Shown here piece after piece: positions 6,200 through 31,350 of a stretch of 32,000 bases of DNA. The stretch comes from Candidatus Helarchaeota ASGARD archaeon Hel_GB_B. GTDB taxonomy: Archaea > Asgardarchaeota > Lokiarchaeia > Helarchaeales > HEL-GB-B. The translations under genes and the position numbers were made by a program. Position 1 is the first letter of the stretch. Each line of letters begins with the position of its first letter. The notes under the pieces are model-generated. The model was given only the letters and a program-made list of their open reading frames with translations, made no database searches and was not told where the DNA came from. The stretch spans positions 18,981 to 50,980 of the forward strand of contig SUPR01000012.1 of NCBI GenBank assembly GCA_005191425.1, read 5' to 3'.

Positions 6200-8258
6200 A
6201 AATTAAGTGCAAAATAAAATTCAAAAGTCCACTGATCAAGATAGAATAAAAGAATATGAAGACCAAAATTAATAATGTTTTTTTAATTCCACGTTCTTTT
6301 CCCATTATTAGAATCGCAGCAATACATGGAATAAATAGAATTATTAGTGTGGTAGCTACAGTATATTGAATTGGCGTCAAACTAGCAAATTCGGCACTTC
6401 CAAAAAGTGTGGCAGCACCCAAATCCCTTCTAATAACCCCAAGTAGCCATAATGCAGCTGCTTCTGGAGGTAATCCCAAAAAATACACAGTAATTGGAGT
6501 GAAAAATGTATTTATATAAATACTTGCATTAGTTTCATTTAAAATACTAATCAATAAAATTCCAATAAAAAATAAAGGAACTGCTTCTGCTAAAAATGAT
6601 TTTGTTTTGTTCCAAGTTTTCATTCCAATATTTGATAATTTAGGAAATCTCATTGGTGGAATTTCTATAATAAATTTTGATTTCTCGCCAGGGACAAATT
6701 TATTTGAAAGATATCCAATAATAAATAATTGTCCAGCAATTATAATTAATACAATTAAAGCCCATTGAAGCCCAACTTGAAATAAAAGTCCTAATATAAT
6801 TCCTAACTGAGCTGAACAAGGAATAGCTAACGCAATCAATAAGGAACTAATAAACCGCTCTTTCTTGGTATCTAAAATCCTTGTTGTTATGATAGCTGAG
6901 GTGCCACACCCTAGCCCAAGCAAAATCGGAATAATTGCTTTACCATTTAAGCCCATTTTATTTGAAAGACGATCTGCATTGACTGCAATTCTGGATAAAA
7001 ACCCAGAGTCTTCTAACACAGCAAATGAAAAAAAGAAAATTGCAACGATTGGTAGAATTAAGCCTATTGTCCATGCAGGCCCTGCGGTTAATAGTCCCAG
7101 ATCTCCAGATAATAAATTAATTAAATGAGTTTTCCAGGGTTCAGCTACTCCACTCAATAAATTTGTAATAAGGACATTCATAAAAGAAGAATATGGGTCA
7201 AATATATATGTCGATAGAAAATCAACAATCAAAATAGCCCCAACATATCCTACAAATAAAAAAACTAATAATAAAACACCTATTGCAATTAATGGCCCAA
7301 AAAATTTATGTAAAGTTATATCTTTTTTTAATTTATTGTCTCTCTTAACTTCCTTAGTTATTTGATACTTATTAATTAAATTTTCAGCTTCTTTTTCTCT
7401 AACCTCGGAAATAATTGTTACAATTGATGTTGTATATGACTTTTTTACAGAATTTATTGAATTTAAAATATCCTCTTTAATTTCTAAGTTTATATTAGAA
7501 TTAATCCAATCTAAAACTATTTGATCTCCTTCTAATAAATTTAATGTAATCGCTCGAACAGAAATTGGAGTTTTAATTGAATTTTTTTTGAAATTTTTTT
7601 CAATTTTTTCAATTAATTTTTCGATATCATCGGAATATTTTATTATTTTTCTATTAAACTGCTCTTTATTTTTATGGACATCAAGGATATTTTTTCTAAT
7701 TTTATCAATTCCAATTTTTTCAACAGCAACAGCTCCTGATACAGGTATTCCCAGTTCATTAGATAGTCCAGCCAAATTAATTTCTATATTATGTGATTTT
7801 GCTTCGTCCATCATATTTAAAATCAGAATAATTGGAATACCAAGTTCAAGTAATTGAAATGTAAATAATAAAGTCCTTCGTAAATTTTTAGCGTCTCCAA
7901 CCTGTATAATTGCTTCGGGGTTTTCGTCCATGATGACTTTTTTTGTGACCTTTTCATCTTCAGACAATGGAACTAAATTATAAATTCCAGGAGTATCAAT
8001 GAAATTAAATGAATAATTTTCTATATTCCTTGTTCCACTCATTAATTCGACAGTTGTCCCCGGGTAATTACTTACATTTGCATATTTTCCAGTTAAATAA
8101 TAAAATATAACCGATTTCCCAACATTTGGATTTCCTACTAGTATTATACGCGGTGATGTGTTCTCTTTGTCTTTATCATTAACTTTTTTCTGCTTTTTGT
8201 GATGTATTCTCCTAAAAATATTTATACCATAACTTTTTTTATCGTTTAGTTCTGTCAT
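6189..8258 (-). CDS. feoB: Ferrous iron transporter FeoB
   Basis: G1 GNPNVGKS, G2 YPGTT, G3 DTPG, G4 NMMD; membrane domain with LEDSGFLSR, GLGC and IPCSA. Confidence 0.96.
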   Translation of the reverse strand: MTELNDKKSYGINIFRRIHHKKQKKVNDKDKENTSPRIILVGNPNVGKSVIFYYLTGKYANVSNYPGTTVELMSGTRNIENYSFNFIDTPGIYNLVPLSEDEKVTKKVIMDENPEAIIQVGDAKNLRRTLLFTFQLLELGIPIILILNMMDEAKSHNIEINLAGLSNELGIPVSGAVAVEKIGIDKIRKNILDVHKNKEQFNRKIIKYSDDIEKLIEKIEKNFKKNSIKTPISVRAITLNLLEGDQIVLDWINSNINLEIKEDILNSINSVKKSYTTSIVTIISEVREKEAENLINKYQITKEVKRDNKLKKDITLHKFFGPLIAIGVLLLVFLFVGYVGAILIVDFLSTYIFDPYSSFMNVLITNLLSGVAEPWKTHLINLLSGDLGLLTAGPAWTIGLILPIVAIFFFSFAVLEDSGFLSRIAVNADRLSNKMGLNGKAIIPILLGLGCGTSAIITTRILDTKKERFISSLLIALAIPCSAQLGIILGLLFQVGLQWALIVLIIIAGQLFIIGYLSNKFVPGEKSKFIIEIPPMRFPKLSNIGMKTWNKTKSFLAEAVPLFFIGILLISILNETNASIYINTFFTPITVYFLGLPPEAAALWLLGVIRRDLGAATLFGSAEFASLTPIQYTVATTLIILFIPCIAAILIMGKERGIKKTLLILVFIFFYSILISGLLNFILHLIFGW

Positions 8259-13089: not shown

Positions 13090-14559
13090 TTGAAGACATA
13101 TGCAGAAATTAATAATAAAATAAAAAAGGGCGATGCAGTAGTAGTGACTGCAGAAGAGATGATAAAAATAGTTGAAGATGATGGGTTAGAGACTGCAGCT
13201 AGAGATGTTGATGTGGTAACAACTGGGACATTTGGTGCAATGTGTTCAAGCGGTGCATTCTTGAATTTTGGGCATTCGGACCCTCCAATTAAAATGGAAC
13301 ATGTATGGCTTAATGGTGTCCATGCTTATCATGGTAATGCAGCTGTAGATTGTTATATTGGCGTTTCTAGAATGAGTGATAAACGTCCATTTAAATATGG
13401 GGGAGGGCACGTCATCGAAGATTTATTGTTAGGAAAACCTATTAAACTAAGAGCTACATCATATACAACTGACTGTTATCCTCTAGAAGAAATTGATACT
13501 GTTTTTACTTTAAATGATTTGAATCAAGCAATTTTATGCAACCCAAGAAATTCTTATCAAAGGTATGTTTGTGCAACTAATAGTACAGAAAGAACCATAT
13601 ATACTTATATGGGGAAATTATTACCAAATTTTGGTAATGCAACTTATTCAGGAACAGGAGAGCTTAGTCCTCTGCAAAATGATCCCAATTATGAAACTAT
13701 TGGTATTGGGACAAGAATTTTTTTAGGTGGAGGTGTTGGATATATTGTTGGCGAGGGAACACAACATAACCCAAAAGAACGTTTTGGGAGTCTTTTTGTA
13801 AAAGGTGATTTAAAACAAATGAGTGCAGAATATTTAAAAGGTGTTAATTTTGAAAGATACGGCACTTCAATGTTTGTTGGACTTGGTATTCCAATCCCGA
13901 TTTTAAATCTTGGACTTGCTAAAAAATGTGCAATTAAAGACGAAGATATTTGGACAGAAGTTGTAGATTATGGAATACCAAGAAGGGATAAACCTGTTTT
14001 AAGAAAAATTACATATAAAGAACTTAAAAGTGGGAGAATTGAATTAAATGGAAAAAAAATTAAATGTTCATCTCTCTCTTCATTATATATGGCGAGAAAA
14101 GTTGCAAACGAATTAAAAAAATGGATAATTGAAGGACGGTTTTTTATCTCTGCTCCTGTAGAAAGACTCCCCACCGATACTAAATTTAAGCCTATGAAAA
14201 TGACTAAAGAAATTAAATTTATTCGGTCGGTAAAAAGAGATGCTTTTACATGTAAATTAGAAGATGGAATTAAATATGTAGCAAACTTAATAATTAAAGA
14301 AAGTACAAATCATGTACCTGTCGTGGATAATAATAATAAATTGATTGGTATTGTCACAAGTTTTGATATTACAAAAGGACTAGCTCTGGGTAAAAACAAA
14401 CTTGATGAAATAGTAACCAAAAAAGTAATTTATACTACATGTGATGAACCAATAGAAATTGCTGCGAGAAAAATGAAGATAAATAAAATTTCGGCATTGC
14501 CAGTTGTTGATAAGGAAAATAAAGTAATTGGAATAGTTTCAGCGGAGGATTTGATATAA
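13090..14559 (+). CDS. L-aspartate-semialdehyde sulfurtransferase (DUF39; MA1821/MJ0100-type homocysteine biosynthesis enzyme) with C-terminal CBS pair
   Basis: DVDVVTTGTFGAMCSSG, LCNPRNSYQ, YTYMG..LP, IGIGTRIFLGG; two CBS repeats at the C-terminus; followed by the NIL-ferredoxin partner. Confidence 0.9.
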   Translation: MKTYAEINNKIKKGDAVVVTAEEMIKIVEDDGLETAARDVDVVTTGTFGAMCSSGAFLNFGHSDPPIKMEHVWLNGVHAYHGNAAVDCYIGVSRMSDKRPFKYGGGHVIEDLLLGKPIKLRATSYTTDCYPLEEIDTVFTLNDLNQAILCNPRNSYQRYVCATNSTERTIYTYMGKLLPNFGNATYSGTGELSPLQNDPNYETIGIGTRIFLGGGVGYIVGEGTQHNPKERFGSLFVKGDLKQMSAEYLKGVNFERYGTSMFVGLGIPIPILNLGLAKKCAIKDEDIWTEVVDYGIPRRDKPVLRKITYKELKSGRIELNGKKIKCSSLSSLYMARKVANELKKWIIEGRFFISAPVERLPTDTKFKPMKMTKEIKFIRSVKRDAFTCKLEDGIKYVANLIIKESTNHVPVVDNNNKLIGIVTSFDITKGLALGKNKLDEIVTKKVIYTTCDEPIEIAARKMKINKISALPVVDKENKVIGIVSAEDLI

Positions 14560-22529: not shown

Positions 22530-22943
22530 TTATTTATTGAATGGACCTAATTCTTTAATTTGGTTAGTAAAATCTCTAATTAAATTAGCGAATTTCATTC
22601 CTTCAGCGGCAGAAACCCATTCTAATCTTATACGTTTTGGGTCGATGCCCATTAATTTAATAATTTCTTGAGTTTTCTTAAATCTCTTTTCTGCATACTC
22701 ATTTCCGCTGATATAATGGCAATCTCCAATGTGGCAGCCACAGACAAGAACGCCATCTGCACCGTTTTTAAGAGAACGTAAAATAAATGATGGTTGGACT
22801 CTACCCGAGCACATAACTCTTATAATTCTTACAGTCGGAGGATATTGAAATCTGCTTACTCCGGCTAAATCTGCGCCTGCGTATCCACACCAATTGCATA
22901 AAAATGCTACAATTCTAGGCGTAAATTCTTTATTATTATTCAT
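22530..22943 (-). CDS. mvhD: MvhD (hydrogenase/Hdr [2Fe-2S] delta subunit), all-Cys form
   Basis: FLCNWCGYAGAD, RVMCSGRV, GCHIGDCHY. Confidence 0.95.
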   Translation of the reverse strand: MNNNKEFTPRIVAFLCNWCGYAGADLAGVSRFQYPPTVRIIRVMCSGRVQPSFILRSLKNGADGVLVCGCHIGDCHYISGNEYAEKRFKKTQEIIKLMGIDPKRIRLEWVSAAEGMKFANLIRDFTNQIKELGPFNK

Positions 22944-27226: not shown

Positions 27227-28746
27227 TTTTCCTCGACCTTTATAATATTTTTAAGTGAGTTATAATAATAAAGGGGCGCCTTATCAATAATTTTAGAAAT
27301 GCTTTTGAAATTTCGAGTTCTTTTTCCTTTCGCAAGTTTTTCTATCAGTGGTATTCCAAAAGGTTTATCGCTAGGTATTTCCTTTACTTGAAAATAGTTT
27401 TCTTGGAGTGCCTCAGTATATAATTTTTCCCCTTTTTCGGTACGGACCACTACAGTAGACCATCCTGGACCTGAGCCTATAGAACCACAAGATATATCTG
27501 ATAATTCATTAGTAAGGTCAACGCAATAATGACATGCTGTGCGTGCTAAAGAAGTTACTTCTTTTATTGGTACTTCAACTGGTTCTTTATCTAAATTATA
27601 AACATAGAATTTCCCTTTATTAATGTCCATTTTTGATACATTATTAATAGGTGTTTTACATATTTCTTCTGAAATTTTTACCACGTTGTTATATGCAAAA
27701 GTTTCCATACAAAATATTCCAATGACATATTCAATAGAACCCCAAATTTTATTGTAAATGTTCGAAAAAACTTGATATTTTCGCATGGCTTGAATTTGAC
27801 AAGGTGTACCTACAAAAGCCAATTTTTTAATTCCAAGTTCTTGAGCAGTATTTAAAGCATCAAAAGTAGGTGCTACTGCATATTTAGTACCTGCTGTTTC
27901 TAAAAGCGCTTCAAAGTTTTTCACAATAACTGGCATTGTATTCCAGGAATTTTTTGCTCTTTTTACTACAACAGCTCCGTCAATAGATTTTTTATCAAAT
28001 AAATATTTTAAAAAAGTAGTAACCATTCCACCATCTTGGCAGACTTCTTTTATTTTTGTATCTTGTGTTTGTGCTGATTTTAATATTCTGTAAGGGCCAA
28101 ATGGCTGGCTATTTAGATCTGAATAAAGATTATATTTTTCTCCAGTAGTATATTCTTTTAGCAAATTTAAAGGTAGAAAGGTCCTTGGGCAATGGAAATT
28201 ACATAGACCACAATGAATACATTTCGATTCATCAATTATTGGTCCGTTATCTTTAATTTCAATTGCACCTACAGGGCATATAGCTTTGCAGGCACCGCAC
28301 ATACAACATAAATCATTTTCTACAATTATGTTAATTGGATCATAGACCGATCGTATACTCCATGGGCTTATTAAGTCCATTGATAAATTTTGCTCATCAT
28401 GTGTCAAAAATAACTTGACACCGTATATCATATTATCAATGTCTCTTAACTCAATCCATCTTTCATTTTGAAGGAGAATTATATTTTTGGAAACAATGAA
28501 TTCCGGAAGATCTAAAGCCTTGCTCAATTCTGGAATAGATGCCGATCCCTTTAATAAAATATATAATAATATACGATATTTATCTATTTCAGAAAGCATT
28601 AATTTATCTAATATTGAATCAACATCATCGGGATGTAATTTTTTCGCATCTTCAATATCAGTTTTATTTTCAAGAAGTGCTCTAACAAACAAACTTCCTG
28701 CATAAGCTTCAGTAGTTGCATTTAACAATTCTTTTGAGATATTCGT
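27223..28746 (-). CDS. wHTH-ferredoxin-FrhB/FdhB (F420 hydrogenase/dehydrogenase beta) fusion; start ACG 28746 or TTG 28728
   Basis: CCMCGAC and CIHCGLC ferredoxin; QDGGMVT, VGTPCQI, GIFCME, ACHYCVD and DISCGSIG FrhB motifs; N-terminal SIPELSKALDLPEFIVSKNI helix-turn-helix pattern. Confidence 0.88.
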   Translation of the reverse strand, partial: TNISKELLNATTEAYAGSLFVRALLENKTDIEDAKKLHPDDVDSILDKLMLSEIDKYRILLYILLKGSASIPELSKALDLPEFIVSKNIILLQNERWIELRDIDNMIYGVKLFLTHDEQNLSMDLISPWSIRSVYDPINIIVENDLCCMCGACKAICPVGAIEIKDNGPIIDESKCIHCGLCNFHCPRTFLPLNLLKEYTTGEKYNLYSDLNSQPFGPYRILKSAQTQDTKIKEVCQDGGMVTTFLKYLFDKKSIDGAVVVKRAKNSWNTMPVIVKNFEALLETAGTKYAVAPTFDALNTAQELGIKKLAFVGTPCQIQAMRKYQVFSNIYNKIWGSIEYVIGIFCMETFAYNNVVKISEEICKTPINNVSKMDINKGKFYVYNLDKEPVEVPIKEVTSLARTACHYCVDLTNELSDISCGSIGSGPGWSTVVVRTEKGEKLYTEALQENYFQVKEIPSDKPFGIPLIEKLAKGKRTRNFKSISKIIDKAPLYYYNSLKNIIKVEEK

Positions 28747-28789
28747 TTCTAATTACCTCCATTACATAAGAGGGTTTTTAATAATTTGT

Positions 28790-28867
28790 AATTATTTACC
28801 CTTCGCATTTAAGGGTTGTCCTCTCGAACCTTAAATTTTTATTGTTCGAGGATCATTCCAAATAATT
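28790..28867 (-). ncRNA. SECIS-like cis-element 3' of vhuD
   Basis: AUGA(28856-53) UC CUCGAAC / A-rich 14-nt loop / GUUCGAG AG GAC, then hairpin ACCCUU-AAAUGCG-AAGGGU, enclosed by AAUUAUUU/AAAUAAUU. Confidence 0.75.
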
Positions 28868-29274
28868 TAATAACGAAGCGGATTTGGGCCGACTCTTTTT
28901 AATTTTTCCATTGTATCTTTAATGGATTCAAGAAATACATTGAATTCAGCAGCACCACATTCATATAAATTTAACCTGCTTTCTCCAAGGGTTAATTCGT
29001 CTAATAGTCGCTTTACAAATTTTATTCGATTTAATGCTTTAATATTTCCATTTATAAAATCACATTCGCCAATATGTCAAGAAATGACCATAACGGCATC
29101 TGCACCCATTCTAAATGCGTGTAATATGTGATATGCATCAACTCGACCTGTACATCTTACTCTGATAATTCGGACATCTGTTGGATATTTATTTCTGGTC
29201 ACACCTGCCAAGTCAGCCGCACCATAACCTCATTTATTACATGCGAATGCTACAATCTTATATTTCTCATTCAT
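28867..29274 (-). CDS. vhuD: Selenoprotein VhuD/MvhD with two Sec (U15, U66); missing from the ORF track
   Basis: MNEKYKIVAFACNK-U-GYGAADLAG...RCTGRV...GADAVMVIS-U-HIGECDF...GPNPLRY*. TGA at 29230-29232 and 29077-29079 align with Cys in CNWC and GCHIGDC of the paralog at 22530..22943. Confidence 0.92.
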
Positions 29275-29324
29275 TTTATTTTCCTTTTTTAAATTTTTTA
29301 ATTATATTTAATTATAATTTAATA

Positions 29325-29397
29325 ACGCCTGTCGGGACGCAATTCCCTATCTCAATAATGAACTGATATTTTTTCATTATTGTCATCAAATAGGCGT
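29325..29397 (-). ncRNA. SECIS-like cis-element 3' of Sec-hdrA
   Basis: AUGA(29386-83) CAAUAAUGAA / AAAAUAUCAG / UUCAUUAUUG A GAU, then hairpin GGGA-AUUGCG-UCCC, enclosed by ACGCCU/AGGCGU. Confidence 0.78.
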
Positions 29398-31350
29398 TTA
29401 TTTTATTAAGGCGTCAATTTCATTCATTATTTGTTCATCTCTGTAATATCTAAATGTTATTGCTCTTACAGGACAACTTGCGGCACAAACTCCACAACCT
29501 TTGCACTTTATTACATCTATTTGTGCTATTCCATCATCGCCAACTTTAATTGCGCTAAACGAGCAATTTCGTTCACAAGTTCCACAACCTATACATAAAT
29601 CTTTGTCGACAATAGGGTTGATGAGTTCCAATCTGAATTTTCCTGAAGATACAAAATCAATCGCCATTGCTGCTGCAGCTCTTGCTGTTGAAACTGTATA
29701 AGGTACTGCCATTGGATTTCTACAAGCACCACCGATATAAACGCCACTTGCTTTAGTTTCGACCGGACTTAAACAAGTGTGTATCTCTTTTATAAATCCA
29801 GACGGTGATAAGTCCAAACCTAATATACTGACAATTTCTTTTGCTTTTGGATGAGGTACCATTGCAGTAGATAATACTACTAGATCAAATTCATCTTTAA
29901 TAATCCTATGACCTATAATGTCCTCGCCCCGTAAAATTAGATTTCGCGTCTCTGGATCTTCTTTAACTTCGGCAATTTTACCTTTAATGAATTTTATTTG
30001 TGGGTTTTCACCTCTAATTCTACTGTAATATTCTTCTTCGTCCTTAGAAGTCGTCCTTATATCTATATAAAAAATATAGACCTCAATATCACCATATTCT
30101 TGGACTAAAAGCTGGGCATTCTTCATGGCGACAAGACAACATACTCCACCTGAACAATAAGCATTAGTTTTTAAATCACGTGAACCAACACACTGTATCA
30201 TTGCAATTTTTTTAGGGGTCTTACCATCAGATACTCTTTTTAAATGTCCACCAGTTGGTCCAGTTGGATTAATAAGACGTTCGAGTTCAATCTGAGTTAA
30301 TACATTATAATATTTACCATATCCATAATCACCGCGTTTTGAAGCATCGTAAACTTCATACCCAACCGTAATAACAATTGCGCCAACTTCAATGTCTTCA
30401 TAAGTCGGTTTCATATCATAATCAACAGCTTCGGCTAAACAATTTTTTTGGCATTGCTTACACTTAATACATGCATCTATGTCAATATACGCTTTTTTAG
30501 GTACTGCATTAGGATGAATTATATTAATAGCTTTTCTAGTACCAAGTCCATAATTGAATTCATTAGGTACCAAAACCGGACATATTTCCATACACCTTCC
30601 ACAACCAGTACATTTTTCCCAATCGACATATGTTGGTTTATGTTCAATAGTTACTTTATATTGACCCGCACTTCCACTGATATTTTTTATTTCACAATAG
30701 GTACGTAATTCGATATTTGGATGTTTTGAAGCCTCGACCATTTTCGGTGCTAAAATTCATATAGCGCAATCATCAGTCGGAAATGTCCGGTCTAATTGTG
30801 CCATCTTTCCGCCGATACTAGGTAAAGAATCCAACAAATAAGTTTTAAAGCCAGCATTCGCAGTAGCTAATGCTGCACTAATTCCTGCAATTCCTGCACC
30901 AATAATTAAGACTTCTTTTATTACTTCCATCTCTTTTAATGGGACATCATCTAATATAGAAGCACGTTCAACACCAGCTTCAATCAATGCTTTTGCTTTC
31001 TCAGTTGCTTCTTCATTTGTAGATGGATTAACAAAAGATACTTGCTCTCTCAGATTCACCATTTGAAAATAATATTGGCTTAGACCTGCTGATTCTAATA
31101 ATGCCCGATATGTAGGTTCGTGTATTTTTGGTGTGCAAGCACCAACAACAACTCTATTTAAGTTATGGTTAATAATATCTTCTGCAATCATTTGTTGCCC
31201 AGGCTCTGAGCACATAAAAGAAAAACTCTTGGATAAGACGACATTTGGTAGTGTTTTTGCGTATTCTGCAACTGCCTCAACATCTACTACACCGCCGATA
31301 TTAACGCCTCATGCACAAACGTAAACTCCAATGCGAATTTCTTCTGACAC
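29398..31350 (-). CDS. hdrA: Selenoprotein HdrA (650 aa) with two Sec (U14, U198); split into two ORFs by the track
   Basis: GTG start with GGTG SD. IGVYVCA-U-GVNIGG (TGA 31309-31311) and FPTDDCAI-U-ILAPKMVE (TGA 30757-30759) are in one frame. They align with CHCG and DCSLCILAPK of the Cys paralog. Canonical HdrA length and domain order. Confidence 0.92.

Follow-up and report, generated by a model that had tools for sequence, protein, structure and literature searches.

The selenocysteine insertion sequence (SECIS) known from Lokiarchaeota, the lokiSECIS, is described in the main text of Mariotti et al. (2016, PMC4989117) as AUGA followed by a stem of 9 bp, a loop rich in A that ends in AG, and then GA, while the main text of Huang, Xiao, and Zhang (2024, PMC11227280) models the Asgard type I eSECIS-like element as a core, an upper stem, and an apical loop, with a stem of 7 to 15 bp carrying at most two mismatches and an apical loop of 8 to 20 nt. 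The literature treats the Asgard SECIS as a simple eukaryote-like hairpin, and this picture is a basis for arguing how the eukaryotic signal evolved. How archaeal SECIS elements are recognized is an open question, with neither an SBP2 homologue nor any other binding protein known for them (PMC4989117, PMC9723677). Here, we analyze two SECIS-like elements, one 3' of hdrA and one 3' of vhuD, in a 32,000-nucleotide stretch of the genome of the Asgard archaeon Candidatus Helarchaeota Hel_GB_B (assembly GCA_005191425.1, contig SUPR01000012.1, positions 18,981 to 50,980; hereafter, the window). We find that both are copies of a conserved, covarying three-way junction that is tied exclusively to UGA-containing genes, in which the main stem (P2) is joined by a closing helix (P1) and a second hairpin (P3).

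The window elements resemble the lokiSECIS and are predicted to fold as three-way junctions

Like the lokiSECIS, the elements considered here place AUGA ahead of a stem of ~9 bp, cap that stem with an A-rich loop whose 3' end is (A)G, and have GA or AA 3' of the stem (GA in both window copies); they lie directly 3' of, or overlap, the stop codons of hdrA, vhuD, vhuU, selD, and prx-like genes, and they occur without SBP2. Both window elements are found 0 to 1 nt from the stop codons of genes with UGA at Cys positions, and none follows the Cys paralogues. Their apical loops (AAAAUAUCAG, 10 nt, after hdrA, and AAUAAAAAUUUAAG, 14 nt and A-rich, after vhuD, each with AG at its end) compare with 11 nt in Lokiarchaeales and fall within the range of the 2024 model; in the vhuD element, GAC stands directly 3' of P2. 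This agreement bears out the SECIS-type AUGA/GA kink-turn core that an earlier reading, made from the letters of the window without database searches (the sequence-only reading), had proposed for both elements. Unlike the lokiSECIS as described, however, the conserved unit adds P1, a canonical (C) stub of 1 to 2 bp, and P3 with an invariant G-Y-R loop (Y, pyrimidine; R, purine). Moreover, whereas the main text of the 2016 study has one element shared by hdrA and vhuD across a very short spacer, here there is one per gene: every hdrA-vhuD pair examined in this Helarchaeales-like order (window 29275-29397, the 123-nt spacer of the pair studied here, and loci L002, L003, L004, L031, and L033) had two SECIS elements, with spacers of about 120 to 200 nt.

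The sequence-only reading had folded both elements by hand, with a closing helix and a second hairpin, and each segment that it listed was found in its place (Table 1). For both elements the minimum-free-energy structure given by RNAfold was the three-way junction so drawn, at -21.5 kcal/mol for the hdrA element, where it was also the centroid (z -3.6 relative to shuffled sequences), and at -18.1 kcal/mol for the vhuD element (z -2.8). The hdrA element reads P1, AUUUG, AUGA, P2, a bulged A, GAU, A, P3, GAC, and the 3' arm of P1, and the vhuD element reads P1, GGA, AUGA, P2, GAC, A, P3, and the 3' arm of P1. The claim that both start at the stop codon holds to within a base, with P1 beginning at the first base 3' of the stop codon in hdrA and at the last base of the stop codon in vhuD.

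Independent recovery came from covariance models built on a sister family of the same class (f4), in which the published kind of Loki selenoprotein genes is present. MAFFT by itself did not align the 3' half by structure; hence, the first model (R1) was seeded from seven f4 elements of the same length. A search of the whole genome with R1, in which 150 of ~4,700 first-look candidates were scored, matched none of this genome's elements. The second model (R2) widened R1 to 36 f4 elements from many gene families and contained zero sequences from the window's order. With filters off, R2 recovered both window elements exactly and at full length, the vhuD element at 33.7 bits (E 1e-6) and the hdrA element at 24.9 bits (E 2.6e-4), and these were its only full-length matches in the whole window. 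It also recovered further hdrA, vhuD, and vhuU elements of this genome from fetched loci. Near the Cys-type mvhD paralogue (22542-22916), our negative control, it gave no match, in line with the original observation that nothing similar lies 3' of that gene. A weak R2 match at 13668-13734 lies inside a 489-codon open reading frame (ORF) without UGA and was taken as chance. A plain AUGA-stem-GA pattern scan of the genome returned 527 matches and was useless in DNA of 28% GC. Rfam, including SECIS_1 (RF00031), gave no relevant match in the whole window at the gathering score and none related at E ≤ 10 over 28700-29500.

Helix sequences change while pairing and the P3 loop are kept

In 30 relatives, the sequences 3' of UGA-containing vhuD genes have the same layout with entirely different helix sequences, P1 for example reading ACUCCC/GGGAGU, ACCCCU/AGGGGU, GCCUCU/AGAGGU, or AUCGAU/AUCGAU. 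Orthologues of the hdrA element (in genomes G001, G002, and G004 and on contig C41 of the window's own genome) likewise differ in the sequences of P1, P2, and P3: the counterparts of P1 are ACACAC/GUGUGU and ACACC/GGUGU, and those of P3 are UAGGGA/UCCCUA, AAGGGUU/GACCCUU, CAGGGU/ACCCUG, and GGGGU/ACCCU. Among 21 distinct elements from the window's order, 95.7% of cells were paired, and compensatory change was observed in 19 of 19 pairs (P3, 4 of 4), giving a covariation score of 1.14, compared with 0.25 for shuffled and at most 0.19 for slid controls. When the set was extended to 70 distinct elements from more than 35 Asgard genomes, 92.7% of cells were paired, compensatory change again affected all 19 modeled pairs, and the score was 0.808 versus 0.232 for shuffled alignments, a value that 0 of 500 shuffles reached; these shuffle statistics overstate significance because the sequences are related, and alignments fitted to a covariance model lean towards the model's own structure. 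In a blind ranking by mutual information, the top column pairs were the proposed pairs, and a fifth P3 pair was added. The closing helix and second hairpin of the hand folds are therefore both conserved and covarying.

The A-U-G of AUGA is invariant in 70 of 70 family members, and the P3 loop is conserved at a level that matches AUGA and the apical AAA: its G is present in 69 of 69 elements, its Y in 68 (C in 57, U in 11), and its R in 65. The triplet is mostly GCA or GCG, usually flanked by U and A, and P3 almost always opens with two C-G pairs. The hairpin loop ending in UGCG that the sequence-only reading had noticed is thus real in both window copies, but as a family motif it gives way to G-Y-R across relatives. 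We also considered whether the P3 loop is a GNRA tetraloop or a T-loop; the registers misfit, and CCAU-GCG-AUGG has a 3-nt loop with no extra bulged bases.

In the vhuD element, the 3' strand of P2 together with GAC (window 28821-28829 with 28818-28820) reads CGAGAGGAC, a nine-letter string identical to the conserved core of the 23S rRNA sarcin-ricin loop. We regard this likeness as a coincidence, as P2 covaries freely in other lineages.

The core reads as a kink-turn abutting the junction

In the 70-element set, the nucleotide preceding the bulge (G) is paired with the one that follows the 3' GA (C), in the proportions 65 GC, 2 AU, and 2 GU, and a second stub pair, A-U, covaries as well (36 AU, 6 UA, and 3 GC); a third (U-A) was unpaired in 18 of 34 cells and is not supported. 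The first P2 pair is non-canonical in 27 of the 70, which fits the 3b.3n position of a kink-turn. In the vhuD element, the stub pair is G28858-C28818, the 3-nt bulge is A28857-A28856-U28855, and G28854-A28853 lies opposite G28820-A28819, with AUGA at 28853-28856. As judged from sequence, the core reads as an ordinary kink-turn, consisting of the C stub, the AAU bulge, G.A/A.G, and P2, whose stub of 1 to 2 bp opens into the P1/P3 junction.

Kink-turns placed in three-way junctions have been described as k-junctions (Wang et al. 2014, PMC4005666; Li et al. 2023, PMC10573300), and the present elements share with them a core of the kink-turn type whose non-bulged strand carries a third helix. The tandem trans sugar-Hoogsteen G.A/A.G pairs that come after the bulge in a k-junction are compatible with the sequence here (bulge AAU, GA opposite GA). 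In a k-junction, however, the third helix lies directly opposite the bulge (PMC10573300), and the C helix is made with the strand beyond that third helix, whereas here an ordinary C stub of 1 to 2 bp intervenes and shifts the branch outward by one or two pairs. Because the G-C pair of the stub covaries, we describe the structure as a kink-turn abutting a three-way junction, and not, in the strict sense, as the k-junction variant of a SECIS that the sequence-only reading had suggested.

With the eukaryotic SECIS (Rfam RF00031), the elements share the quartet of the kink-turn, adenines left unpaired in the apical loop (AAR in eukaryotes), and a lower helix beyond the internal loop, P1 being the counterpart of helix I; they differ in having a shorter helix II (9 bp), in carrying P3 in the 3' side of the internal loop, and in abutting the stop codon. 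The euryarchaeal SECIS (eaSECIS) is a different structure, and its GAA_A bulge between a lower stem and a three-G/C upper stem is absent here. The closest euryarchaeal likeness is to the vhuD SECIS of Methanococcales and Methanopyrus, which, compared by its description in the main text of PMC4989117, shares AUGA opposite GAC or AAC, a short extra outer stem, and the same gene. Its main stem, on the other hand, is of the euryarchaeal type (GAA_A bulge, three G/C pairs), and that text describes no side hairpin between GAC and the outer stem. We also tried reading P1 and P3 as a split euryarchaeal SECIS and rejected this, as J2 and J3, the segments on either side of P3, are not conserved and differ among elements in both sequence and length.

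P3 follows single-selenocysteine and multi-selenocysteine genes alike

A descriptor scan of the window's genome (G000; a 3.5-Mb assembly of 182 contigs, with the window on contig C26) found junction elements after four hdrA genes (on C26, C41, C167, and C122) and four vhuD genes (on C26, C41, C167, and C118). Another lies 3' of a vhuU-like ORF with a single selenocysteine (Sec; ..DNULSCSAH..) behind the large subunit of a NiFeSe hydrogenase (L043:289-361; C128, ~7650-7720, minus strand), and one more (C121) follows a gene cut by the contig end. No element was found 3' of this genome's Cys-type vhuD copies. Within f4, the genes that precede an element are selD, hdrA, several paralogues of vhuD, and some for small proteins that belong to no Pfam family. 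The sequence-only reading had proposed testing whether single-Sec genes lack the hairpin; the hairpin is present after vhuU, selD, and small one-Sec proteins.

As a falsification test of the generality of P3, a core-only model lacking P1 and P3 (R3) was run and gave 24 strong matches in five genomes. Four of the 24 were new relative to the R2 list, and inspection of all four revealed a P3 hairpin with a G-Y-R-type loop in each; the remainder coincided with three-helix R2 matches or with junction elements of the window's own genome.

In an R2 survey of the phylum (151 genomes), all 25 f4 genomes had 2 to 10 full-length matches, and five genomes from two further families had a GC-rich version after a two-UGA vhuD (for example, CCGCCU...AGGCGG, with P3 CCCU-CAAAGCA-AGGG). 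Families f10 and f15 gave no R2 match, and their vhuD homologues, in the 21 and 16 genomes checked, have no in-frame UGA. Together, these data show that P3 is a general SECIS module in Lokiarchaeia, the Helarchaeales-like order among them, and in two or more additional families of Asgard archaea, with no multi-Sec specialty.

Several of the genes found in the course of this survey deserve mention on their own account. Small ORFs with GGGUGC or GGPSULC and no Pfam family (L050:1041-1472, L063:1193-1507, and L064:1255-1494, in the f4 genomes G007, G031, and G059) are predicted to be membrane-anchored, and each has a full junction SECIS; we consider them candidates for unlisted selenoprotein families. 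A conserved protein of ~150 residues, also without a Pfam family, has two adjacent in-frame UGA codons (L062:1011-1496, L134, and L127, in G059, G031, and G010; ..HADUUAD.., ..AGCUUEK..) and a junction SECIS. DATKTP010000045.1 (L106), titled 'Candidatus Deferrimicrobium sp.', encodes a two-UGA vhuD with 74% identity to that of the window and is probably an Asgard contig that was wrongly binned or labeled. In many f4 genes (L007-L030, vhuD 3' ends), translation stops at the UGA within the AUGA core; the last residues (..T-P-V-E-stop) are then encoded by the 5' arm of P1, which places C-terminal peptide and RNA helix under mutual constraint.

Genomic setting

The window is 28% GC. On its minus strand, hdrA, vhuD/mvhD, and an frhB-like gene follow one another, the last beginning 138 nt beyond vhuD. 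The relatives of vhuD likewise carry two TGA codons. The genome encodes SelB, in a frame of ~480 residues, and a UGA-containing selD (C31:7806-8315) that runs off the contig end, the 3' end of selD being missing from the assembly.

Table 1. Positions in the window of the two SECIS elements, their parts, and the genes concerned
Feature	Position	Strand	Details and basis
hdrA 3' SECIS, complete three-way junction, 73 nt	29325..29397	-	RNAfold; full-length R2 match
hdrA element, P1, ACGCCU/AGGCGU	5' arm 29392..29397; 3' arm 29325-29330	-	Covaries with orthologues
hdrA element, AUGA, kink-turn bulged strand	29383..29386	-	Partner GA 29350-29351, 3' of bulged A 29352
hdrA element, P2, 10 bp, CAAUAAUGAA/UUCAUUAUUG, apical loop AAAAUAUCAG	29353..29382	-	RNAfold
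hdrA element, P3, GGGA-AUUGCG-UCCC, loop ending G-C-G	29334..29347	-	RNAfold; covaries with orthologues
vhuD 3' SECIS, complete three-way junction, 78 nt	28790..28867	-	RNAfold; full-length R2 match
vhuD element, P1, AAUUAUUU/AAAUAAUU	5' arm 28860..28867; 3' arm 28790-28797	-	RNAfold
vhuD element, kink-turn bulged strand	28853..28859	-	Sequence; stub pair covaries in the family
vhuD element, P2, 9 bp with one C.A, UCCUCGAAC/GUUCGAGAG, apical loop AAUAAAAAUUUAAG	28821..28852	-	RNAfold
vhuD element, P3, ACCCUU-AAAUGCG-AAGGGU, loop ending G-C-G	28798..28816	-	RNAfold; covaries across the order
hdrA, 653 codons	29398..31359	-	Two in-frame UGA; stop UAA 29398-29400; Pfam Fer4 and Pyr_redox_2 families
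hdrA Sec codons	Sec17 31309-31311; Sec201 30757-30759	-	In-frame UGA
vhuD/mvhD, 135 codons	28867..29274	-	Pfam FlpD; two in-frame UGA; stop UAA 28867-28869
vhuD Sec codons	Sec15 29230-29232; Sec66 29077-29079	-	In-frame UGA
Cys-type mvhD paralogue, negative control	22542..22916	-	No in-frame UGA; no SECIS-like element 3' of the gene

A probable junction SECIS with P3 as a general module

We consider it highly probable that both elements are working SECIS elements of the Asgard type (Loki-type, eukaryote-like), with a three-way junction as the conserved fold and P3 as a general module. Each would serve the pair of UGA codons in its own gene, hdrA or vhuD. In the conserved fold, P1, a closing helix of free sequence, starts within the stop codon or right beside it; next comes the core known from the literature, with a canonical stub of 1 to 2 bp (..AG/CU..), the AAU bulge, tandem G.A/A.G, the 9-bp P2, and a loop with invariant AAA and a terminal G; and P3, a short G/C-rich hairpin whose loop is always G-Y-R, occupies the 3' strand between the kink-turn and P1. 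In the proposed mechanism, the junction would hold the very short C stub, thereby fixing the kink, and the P3 loop together with the P2 loop may provide a second sequence-specific contact for the archaeal SECIS reader, be it SelB, a dedicated protein, or the ribosome. We infer that P3 braces the kink-turn, and it is probably a second recognition site. More tentatively, the G-Y-R loop could be where the reader docks, whether that is a dedicated protein, SelB itself, or part of the ribosome; the signal would then be bipartite, made up of the kink-turn hairpin and the P3 loop at a fixed angle set by the junction, and the eukaryotic SECIS might have arisen by loss of P3 when SBP2 took over.

The second hairpin would have a simpler role if P1 and P3 were a structural clamp only, one that helps the AU-rich hairpin and kink-turn to fold, or refold, after each terminating ribosome in an mRNA of 28% GC, with P3 left unread. 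P1 is free in sequence and covaries like pure scaffold, a C stub of 1 to 2 bp would need bracing, and junction contexts favor ion-induced folding of kink-turn-based structures (PMC10573300). In addition, the 5' arm of P1, and often AUGA too, overlaps the stop codon, so that each terminating ribosome must unfold the element. A clamp, however, needs no invariant loop, and the conservation of G, Y, and R, together with the near-invariant CC/GG pairs of P3, points to sequence-specific reading; we therefore regard a pure clamp as possible but doubtful.

By analogy with k-junctions, P3 might instead act as an anti-determinant, a helix on the non-bulged strand beside the kink-turn that keeps abundant archaeal L7Ae off, so that the SECIS would not be treated as a box C/D-like k-turn and would remain available to the Sec machinery. 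The core of the hdrA element does read UUGAUGA, which is box-C-like. We think this improbable, since the argument is pure analogy, the stub of 1 to 2 bp between kink-turn and branch may make for a different geometry, and the invariant G-Y-R loop would be left unexplained.

The sequence-only reading had favored another role, namely, that the extra hairpin is a specialization for decoding two or more UGA codons per gene in a polycistronic mRNA, and both window genes do carry two UGAs and lie in one gene cluster. The same hairpin, however, follows the single-Sec vhuU of this genome and, in f4, selD and small one-Sec proteins, and P3 was present at all 24 strong core-only matches. As P3 follows every selenoprotein gene type examined, the link to two-UGA genes or polycistrons fails; and since each hdrA and vhuD in the order has its own element, neither needs action across cistrons. 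We now hold this role to be very unlikely. It is scarcely credible that the extra helices arose by chance or from hand folding, or that they belong to a terminator or to a regulator of the ribosome-binding site of the next gene. Many f4 elements do have a U-run 3' of them, and spurious helices are common in hand folds of very AU-rich sequence, but P3 is nested in P1, covaries, is confined to the 3' side of UGA-containing genes irrespective of what follows, and is missing 3' of Cys paralogues.

For the reading that we prefer, a working junction SECIS with P3 as a general module, several observations weigh on the other side, in addition to the two reservations about alignments and shuffles given above. 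The core of the hdrA element requires a bulged A (29352) before GAU, as the sequence-only reading had noted; the same A-GAU-A layout is kept in G001. In 22 of 67 elements, the bases of the fourth P3 pair (U-A) do not pair, and a few elements, such as that of the G001 vhuD, have a weak P1. The vhuU element on C128 has AC, and the C41 hdrA element AA, in place of the GA 3' of P2. Two elements of G005 (family f3; L006:1417-1493 and L006:1941-2018), located 3' of a two-UGA vhuD and its hdrA, keep P1, P2, and P3, with the loop AAUGCAA, and have AAAU/AAAUU at the AUGA/GA positions, with no AUGA/GA at all; judged by their letters, they look like junction SECIS elements that lack the G.A kink-turn core. 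With the standard GA missing from the vhuU, C41 hdrA, and G005 elements, the kink-turn is not certain in every copy. A mutual-information search found no column that covaries with the P3 loop, so that a tertiary Watson-Crick contact is neither shown nor excluded, and SelB, examined for a C-terminal extension that could be a candidate binder of P3, has no long or obvious one. Finally, the sequence-only reading knew of no description of the second hairpin, and we found no mention of it or of the closing helix in the main texts of Mariotti et al. 2016 (PMC4989117), Huang et al. 2024 (PMC11227280), or a 2026 review; figures and supplements, which lay outside this search, might draw the hairpin uncommented. 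The kind of SECIS is already known, and the P3 module, for which support is strong, is apparently undescribed.

Implications

If the junction is as proposed here, models used to search for Asgard selenoproteins would become far more specific, the core-only pattern being very noisy at 28% GC. The comparison with the eukaryotic SECIS would shift as well, with P1 corresponding to helix I and P3 being an insertion that eukaryotes lack. The junction would also provide a concrete bait for finding the reader of the signal, together with a defined set of mutants, namely, changes of the loop G and deletion of P3.

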